DNA of 64,000 bases, taken from positions 2,075,717-2,139,716 of the forward strand of contig MU056898.1 in the NCBI GenBank assembly GCA_013239625.1, given 5' to 3'. Positions 22,993 to 23,180 of this stretch are shown here, one piece after another. Every line of letters begins with the position of its first letter. Position 1 is the first letter of the stretch. Both the position numbers and the translations under genes were made by a program. The notes beneath the pieces are model-generated. The model did no database searches. It saw nothing but the letters and a program-made list of their open reading frames with translations, and was not told the DNA's origin. This DNA is from Lama guanicoe (Eukaryota).

Positions 22993-23180
22993 CCATGTTC
23001 TCCATAATGCTGTTCCTCTGTCCCCAAAGGTGTATGTGGATGGAGGGCAGGTGACCCCAGGCCCCTGTGACGCTGTCCTCTGTCCCCGAAGGTGTATGTG
23101 AACGGAGAGTGGGTGACCCCAGGCCCCTGTGACGCTGTCCTCTGTCCCCAAAGGTGTATGTGAATGGAGAGTGGGTGACC
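22993..23180 (+). repeat. 62-bp tandem repeat (3 copies) spanning the intron 6/exon 7 junction
   Basis: Unit ccaggcccctgtgacgctgtcctctgtcccc(a/g)aag|gtgtatgtg(a/g)a(c/t)ggag..ggtgacc. AG| junctions end at 23029, 23091 and 23153 (period exactly 62). Confidence 0.95.

Follow-up and report, generated by a model that had tools for sequence, protein, structure and literature searches.

Introduction

Tandem repeats that lie over intron-exon boundaries are known from amphioxus, where they have been called "mirages" and are described as compatible with normal splicing (PMC3087553, PMC3902484). They are reported to be unstable in length and to have diverged outer copies, and a route to new exons through them has been proposed (PMC3087553). 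In human, the CBS allele c.844_845ins68 carries a 68-bp duplication that is described as leaving splicing undisturbed, the downstream copy being the one that is kept (PMC7490669, PMC2630376). Neural microexons offer a further comparison. In those responding to SRRM3/4 the 5' sites are reported to be stronger, and both the tract and the branch point to lie farther from the AG, which leaves space for a UGC enhancer, and UGC is described as not strictly needed for the SRRM4 response (bioRxiv 10.1101/2024.09.17.613571); the branch distance of neural microexons is given as a median of 45 nt vs 34 (PMC12871342).

Here we describe a three-copy, 62-bp repeat over an intron-exon boundary of PRKAR1B in the window (the whole 64,000-nt stretch of Lama guanicoe DNA analysed). 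A preliminary description had proposed that the most diverged copy forms a newborn 21-nt neural microexon that rescues an otherwise poison acceptor. All of its coordinates agree with the sequence, and several of its interpretations are not supported. By analogy, the best reading is that the camelid repeat belongs with the mirage-type boundary duplications and with CBS 844ins68.

Gene structure

The gene is PRKAR1B, as had been proposed, and the window holds its 3' part: residues 184-236 of RI-beta (4din_B) are encoded at 23154-23312, and tblastn places further PRKAR1B exons at 14893, 15419, 29411, 32935, 47533 and 47903. Exon 6 ends at 15466, in phase 0. The product, RI-beta, is reported to be brain-enriched (PMC12535202). 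The features considered here are as follows; X15 is one of the sequencing runs compared below.

15420..15466, + strand: PRKAR1B upstream coding exon ("exon 6"), with a phase-0 donor at 15467
23005..23010, + strand: branch-like TAAT and overlapping TGC at the left repeat edge; the TAAT is flank, outside the duplicated unit
23009..23029, + strand: pyrimidine tract and AG of copy 1, a likely decoy acceptor; run X15 has changes here at 23014 and 23027
23030..23050, + strand: candidate 21-nt in-frame cassette, VYVDGGQ, in the copy 1 exon head; open reading
23048..23056, + strand: cryptic donor CAG/GTGACC, present in run X15 too
23057..23091, + strand: intron tail of 35 nt, up to and including the acceptor of copy 2, homologous to insertions in warthog and pangolin records
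23092..23118, + strand: copy 2 exon head, differing from the true exon at 1 of 27 nt; likely recent and likely missing in X15
23119..23153, + strand: intron tail of 35 nt, up to and including the acceptor of true exon 7, as read from the sequence
23154..23312, + strand: true exon 7, 159 nt, CNB-A, RI-beta residues 184-236, with donor ATG/GTGAGT

Several coding differences were seen against a set of 327 proteins. Exon 7 reads KVWGID at 23271-23273 vs KLWGID in other vertebrate records, and this variant occurs in five of the 327 proteins, all five of them the camelid records. The exon at 32935-33054 encodes PTQF in the window vs PAQF in the five camelid records. The last exon has NRARAAT at 47930-47940, in the second cAMP-binding cassette; NRPRAAT is found in 242/327 proteins and NRARAAT in none (0/327), and the difference may reflect change in the lineage, a variant, or else an error of assembly. 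Alternative last exons of short camelid PRKAR1B records match the window at 34814-34885, 40366-40437 and about 59199-59267, the last of these lying past the normal 3' end with an identity of only 65-70%. The match at 34814-34885 agrees with the alpaca record at the single residue where alpaca differs from the Camelus record; with the KVWGID variant, this makes a South American camelid the likely source on protein grounds too.

The 62-bp array

Tandem Repeats Finder (TRF) reports a tandem repeat of period 62 and 2.8 copies at 23009-23180. The unit spans the boundary of intron 6 and exon 7 and consists of a 35-nt intron tail and a 27-nt exon head, with acceptors directly before 23030, 23092 and 23154 and exon-like starts at those positions. 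All three copies keep the AG and have 13-14 pyrimidines in 17 tract positions. The exon heads of copy 2 and copy 1 differ from the true exon at 1/27 and 4/27 positions respectively, all by transitions, and the two full intron tails differ at 1/35; the tail of copy 1 is 14 nt shorter, and this copy carries one indel. The proposed origin by duplication is supported. Upstream of 23009 no significant homology between copies was detected (p 0.41 and 0.56), and a DNA search of assembly G000 returned the three copies and none elsewhere. The title of Romano 2010 reportedly names G-run silencers for CBS; each of the three copies here has a single GGG.

Two features that define mirages, a boundary-spanning unit and extra copies that keep their splice signals, are present in the camelid array. 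Both kinds of repeat combine an intron 3' end with an exon 5' end in a unit within 10-160 bp, and they have in common an intact AG per copy, an outer copy that is the most diverged, and, if run X15 has two copies as is likely (below), a copy number that varies between lineages. Unlike the amphioxus repeats, the camelid array is in a mammal, has only three copies, has a copy 1 tail short by 14 nt, and carries in copy 1 a donor-like site with which a 21-nt cassette opens in frame. Normal splicing, seen by RT-PCR in amphioxus mirages, is inferred in the camelid array. The CBS duplication likewise joins an intron end to the start of the next exon (52 + 16 nt vs 35 + 27 nt), and its downstream acceptor copy gives normal message. 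It differs in being a two-copy human polymorphism with tested splicing.

Four of 24 runs (X4, X9, X11 and X15) were compared over 22500-23200. Run X9 gave no match and X4 a single unrelated one of 36 nt, and 23148-23200 was covered in none of the four; because records are dropped by a filter, such gaps carry no weight. In run X11, whose organism label and study are other than those of the possible source, a contig stops at 23079 and a 92-nt piece covers 23050-23141 with 0 differences. A k=31 graph built from the window is expected to break at 23079 and to yield pieces at 23050-23087 and 23058-23141; the X11 break and piece thus fit a three-copy graph, and X11 holds copy 2 followed by a tail. 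The array is present in an independent run and is therefore real. Mis-assembly of the extra copies might have been suspected from the short tandem repeat and a fragmented assembly (55231 contigs), but given the X11 break and its identical piece, together with the occurrence of copy 1 in run X15 as well, its probability is close to nil. A 36-nt stretch at 22587-22622 matches another contig with 6 differences in both X4 and X11, and is probably a small dispersed repeat.

A pattern scan of metagenome contigs for other mammals' genomic DNA gave 0 matches, and a protein scan for such DNA gave 80 loci at no more than 88% identity, which were left out. A protein search of G000 for a retrocopy recording the junction gave exon 7, one 85% paralogue and two distant matches.

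Splice signals of the candidate cassette

At 23048-23056 copy 1 reads CAG/GTGACC vs TGG/GTGACC in copies 2 and 3, as had been noted. The resulting cassette (23030-23050) is 21 nt long, in phase 0/0, without a stop, and translates as VYVDGGQ; it would be followed by an intron of 103 nt (23051-23153) that ends in AG at the true exon-7 acceptor. The CAG might also have been intron sequence from the start. Over 27 nt, however, the head of copy 1 keeps the exon's register and differs by 4 transitions, which favours an origin by substitution of TGG.

Among the 499 intronic AGs plus copy 1, the cassette is the sole candidate above thresholds that combines an AG, 3-27 nt in frame and a GT, and it stands out beyond chance only because its acceptor is a duplicate. 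The branch-like TAAT (23005-23008) and the TGC (23008-23010) that had been singled out as peculiar to copy 1 are indeed there, but the duplicated unit begins after the TAAT and the T of the TGC. At the equivalent place copies 2 and 3 read TGAC, which fits the branch core consensus as well as TAAT does. Counted from the copy 1 AG, the positions are -23 for the branch-like A, -22 for the TGC and -20..-4 for the tract, although the true branch point may lie farther out. Since 158/499 intronic AGs have a TGC at -25..-4, its occurrence in copy 1 is not beyond chance. Pyrimidines occupy 14/17 tract positions in copy 1 vs 13/17 at the true acceptor. RNA folding gave no clear difference in masking, with unpaired probabilities of 0.46, 0.32 and 0.47 for the three acceptors.

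Donor strength was estimated roughly, from a donor frequency matrix rather than MaxEntScan and from the energy of the duplex with the U1 end. On this matrix the copy 1 donor scores 77.7 vs 65.6 for copies 2 and 3, the six true PRKAR1B donors score 73.8-93.7, and 8/429 intronic GTs score as high as copy 1; the duplex energy (-8.1 kcal/mol) is better than those of three of the six true donors. It had been noted that the lack of +5G might keep use of the donor low. It does lack +5G, and +6U, but its strength is not negligible, the score being within the range of the gene's own donors. No published MaxEnt score for it was found in the literature.

Plain read-through from copy 1 or copy 2 adds 124 or 62 nt and runs into stops at 23099 and 23161 respectively, 211 and 149 nt ahead of the next junction, so the description of these acceptors as poison holds. 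A premature stop at such a distance before a junction predicts nonsense-mediated decay.

A relative in run X15 and the probable order of events

Run X15 comes from an RNA library, and 0.21 of the 3' UTR words occur in it. One of its contigs covers 22500-23118 with 17 differences in 619 nt (2.7%), and its source is likely an Old World camel; a split between the two camelid tribes 11-25 million years ago is reported (PMC4884201). Agreement with the window breaks off at the point where the true exon departs from copy 2 (CCA vs AGC); 3 unmatched letters follow, and the last position of the contig, 23121, lies 30 nt beyond the acceptor in the register of copy 2. At 23088 the contig has the A of copy 3. 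A k=31 contig would be cut 30 nt past an acceptor by a spliced message joining there. From this one contig, X15 likely holds two copies, copy 1 and the true exon, as against three in the window and in X11, and its end then fits a spliced message entering at the last copy.

Run X15 shows no differences at 23048-23056, so the CAG/GTGACC donor predates the split between the window and X15. Copy 1 and its CAG are common to a relative 2.7% diverged, and "newborn" is not supported for them. Shared changes affect about 5 of 48 nt in copy 1 (10%, interval 3-24%) vs the 2.7% that separates the window from X15, and copy 1 is likely the old copy, with copy 2 the newer piece. Copy 2 was, we infer, gained on the llama side, although its loss in the relative would fit as well.

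In a two-copy allele the intron behind CAG/GTGACC measures 41 nt, vs 103 nt with three copies. For human introns a threshold near 65 nt is described, with 22 conserved candidate introns of 37-65 nt, 15 of which have splicing evidence (PMC4463651), and predicted introns below 70 nt are described as mostly non-canonical (PMC5435141). Because 41 nt is below this threshold, the donor was likely not selectable as a rescue. The proposed rescue of a poison acceptor also loses ground because CAG/GT likely predates the 103-nt intron, and copy 2 stays unrescued in any case.

Over the 52 nt at 23005-23056 X15 differs at 3 positions vs 11/505 in the flank (p 0.13), a small test in which zero changes would have had a probability of 0.32. 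These changes give no sign of constraint on the 52-nt element, with counts too few to prove neutrality. An A>G change at 23027 places a CAG two bases upstream (in frame, AAG -> GAG), and the X15 exon, if used, would likely be 23 nt and frame-shifting; a G>C change at 23043 replaces Gly by Ala. The continuity of X15 through copy 1 is uninformative on inclusion, since contigs built at k=31 would run on past an exon of 21 nt.

Protein records at the exon 6-7 junction

Across the junction 280 of the 327 proteins could be scored; 264 have the plain spacing and 16 a differing one, and on this count an insert here may be tolerated. Neither VDGGQ nor VDAGQ occurs in any of the 327. All five camelid records have a plain junction, and all are predicted short isoforms, with no full-length camelid isoform among the members listed (at most 15 per cluster).

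One warthog record, PRKAR1B isoform X1 (P0003, XP_047635308.1), has an in-frame 20-residue insert at residues 190-209. It corresponds to a 60-nt duplicate consisting of an exon head unchanged at the protein level and a tail with a significant match to that of the camelid unit (p 0.001 vs 1000 intronic controls), and is the only such duplicate among the 327 proteins; four non-mammal inserts gave p values of at least 0.12 in the same test. The warthog record thus resembles the camelid array in duplicating the same exon head and a homologous tail at the same junction, and differs from it in being 60 nt long and in frame, in having a head like copy 2 and not copy 1, and in being a predicted record. 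In a pangolin record with an insertion only the tail matches (p 0.001-0.002); a decayed exon-head copy was sought there and is not significant (p 0.41-0.77). By these matches the intron tail is old, and artiodactyls have likely seen more than one duplication of the acceptor, by 62 nt out of frame in camelids and by 60 nt in frame in warthog. Carp and loach records (P0058, P0059 and P0311) have a near-identical 19-residue insert at the exon 6-7 junction that is unrelated to the repeat and may be a conserved fish alternative exon.

In the preliminary description the CNB-A beta4-beta5 loop is said to contact the adenine base and to differ in length between RI and RII. Placing the seven cassette residues there, as had been suggested, is reasonable, the VYV of the cassette repeating the strand that precedes the NG turn. 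In RII-beta the corresponding CNB-A loop is described as lying at the holoenzyme interface (PMC8144671). AlphaFold2, given the warthog record and 48 relatives, returned a model of low quality (mean pLDDT 62.9, pTM 0.41), which was not used to judge tolerance. In it residues 189-207, the extra copy, fall below 50 pLDDT, and the strands are formed by the second copy.

Discussion

A strong donor pairs with the nearest acceptor under exon definition. We consider it very probable that the three-copy boundary repeat is tolerated, its upstream copies being decoys that are skipped and the cassette a trace or silent neutral by-product. Copy 1 would have come first and then decayed, by the 4 transitions in 27 nt, TGG -> CAG included, and the one indel; copy 2 would have followed in the llama-side lineage, through slippage or unequal crossover between existing copies. 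The spliceosome would join the strong exon 7 donor ATG/GTGAGT with the nearest acceptor, that of copy 3. Rare transcripts entering at copy 1 or 2 would hit a stop codon and be removed by nonsense-mediated decay; those with the 21-nt cassette would escape it, which makes trace inclusion plausible. Normal message from the genuine copy is likely, and the five plain camelid predicted proteins and the X15 contig end fit it; a function of the cassette is not indicated. Against this reading, the copy 1 donor is not weak, its tract is slightly better than that of the true acceptor, and an intron of 103 nt is of normal size.

A bolder reading would make the cassette young and unregulated, included at 5% or more without selection, with a donor kept dormant by the 41-nt gap and usable at 103 nt. 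It draws on a usable donor and a good acceptor in the sole such cassette of the intron, on a frame that is kept and so exposes the transcript to no decay, on the intron lengths of the two- and three-copy states, and on the warthog record (P0003), which uses an upstream in-frame copy and shows that an annotation pipeline accepted such an acceptor. Yet exons as short as 21 nt depend on strong sites and on helpers to be well defined, this donor has neither +5G nor +6U, and the cassette is missing from all five camelid records; we regard this reading as improbable. An exon birth in two steps, in which the llama-side second duplication stretched the 41-nt gap to 103 nt and switched on a 7-residue RI-beta cassette, is likewise improbable. 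Less probable again is the neural microexon as originally proposed, activated by SRRM4/3, adding 7 residues in the CNB-A beta4-beta5 region and rescuing a poison acceptor. The cassette does share with SRRM3/4 microexons a size within the 3-27 nt class, a preserved frame (phase 0/0, no stop), a UGC (here TGC) between the branch-like site and the AG, and a neuron-enriched host gene, RI-beta being described as brain-enriched (PMC12535202); the position of the junction, at the VYV strand that leads into the NG turn, also fits. That UGC is not strictly required for the response cuts both ways. What tells against SRRM4-type control is the position of the branch-like A at -23, vs a reported median of 45 nt in human neural microexons (PMC12871342), with the TGC upstream of the tract instead of between tract and AG and at a frequency expected by chance (158/499). 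The 5' site is mid-range on the two rough scores, and copy 2 remains a poison acceptor. Nor is this candidate exon conserved even in a 2.7%-diverged relative: 3 of 52 positions are changed in X15, one at the acceptor and one non-synonymous, and the peptide is found in 0/327 proteins.

A search of the literature on PRKAR1B splicing and microexons, by title or start of abstract and covering few subscription papers, showed none on this repeat among the papers listed; the match for microexons was a circular RNA review. Mirage-type repeats have been proposed as raw material for new exons and introns. As likeliest read, nothing more than tolerance of an ordinary repeat is at work in the camelid array, which gives a mammalian case of what is known from amphioxus and from human CBS. 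Should the two-step exon birth prove true, the junction would count as a hot spot at which artiodactyls repeatedly gain insertions in the RI-beta loop. The two- and three-copy camelid alleles and the in-frame warthog version, which differ in intron length and frame, would make a natural test system that bears on whether a second duplication can unlock a dormant microexon.
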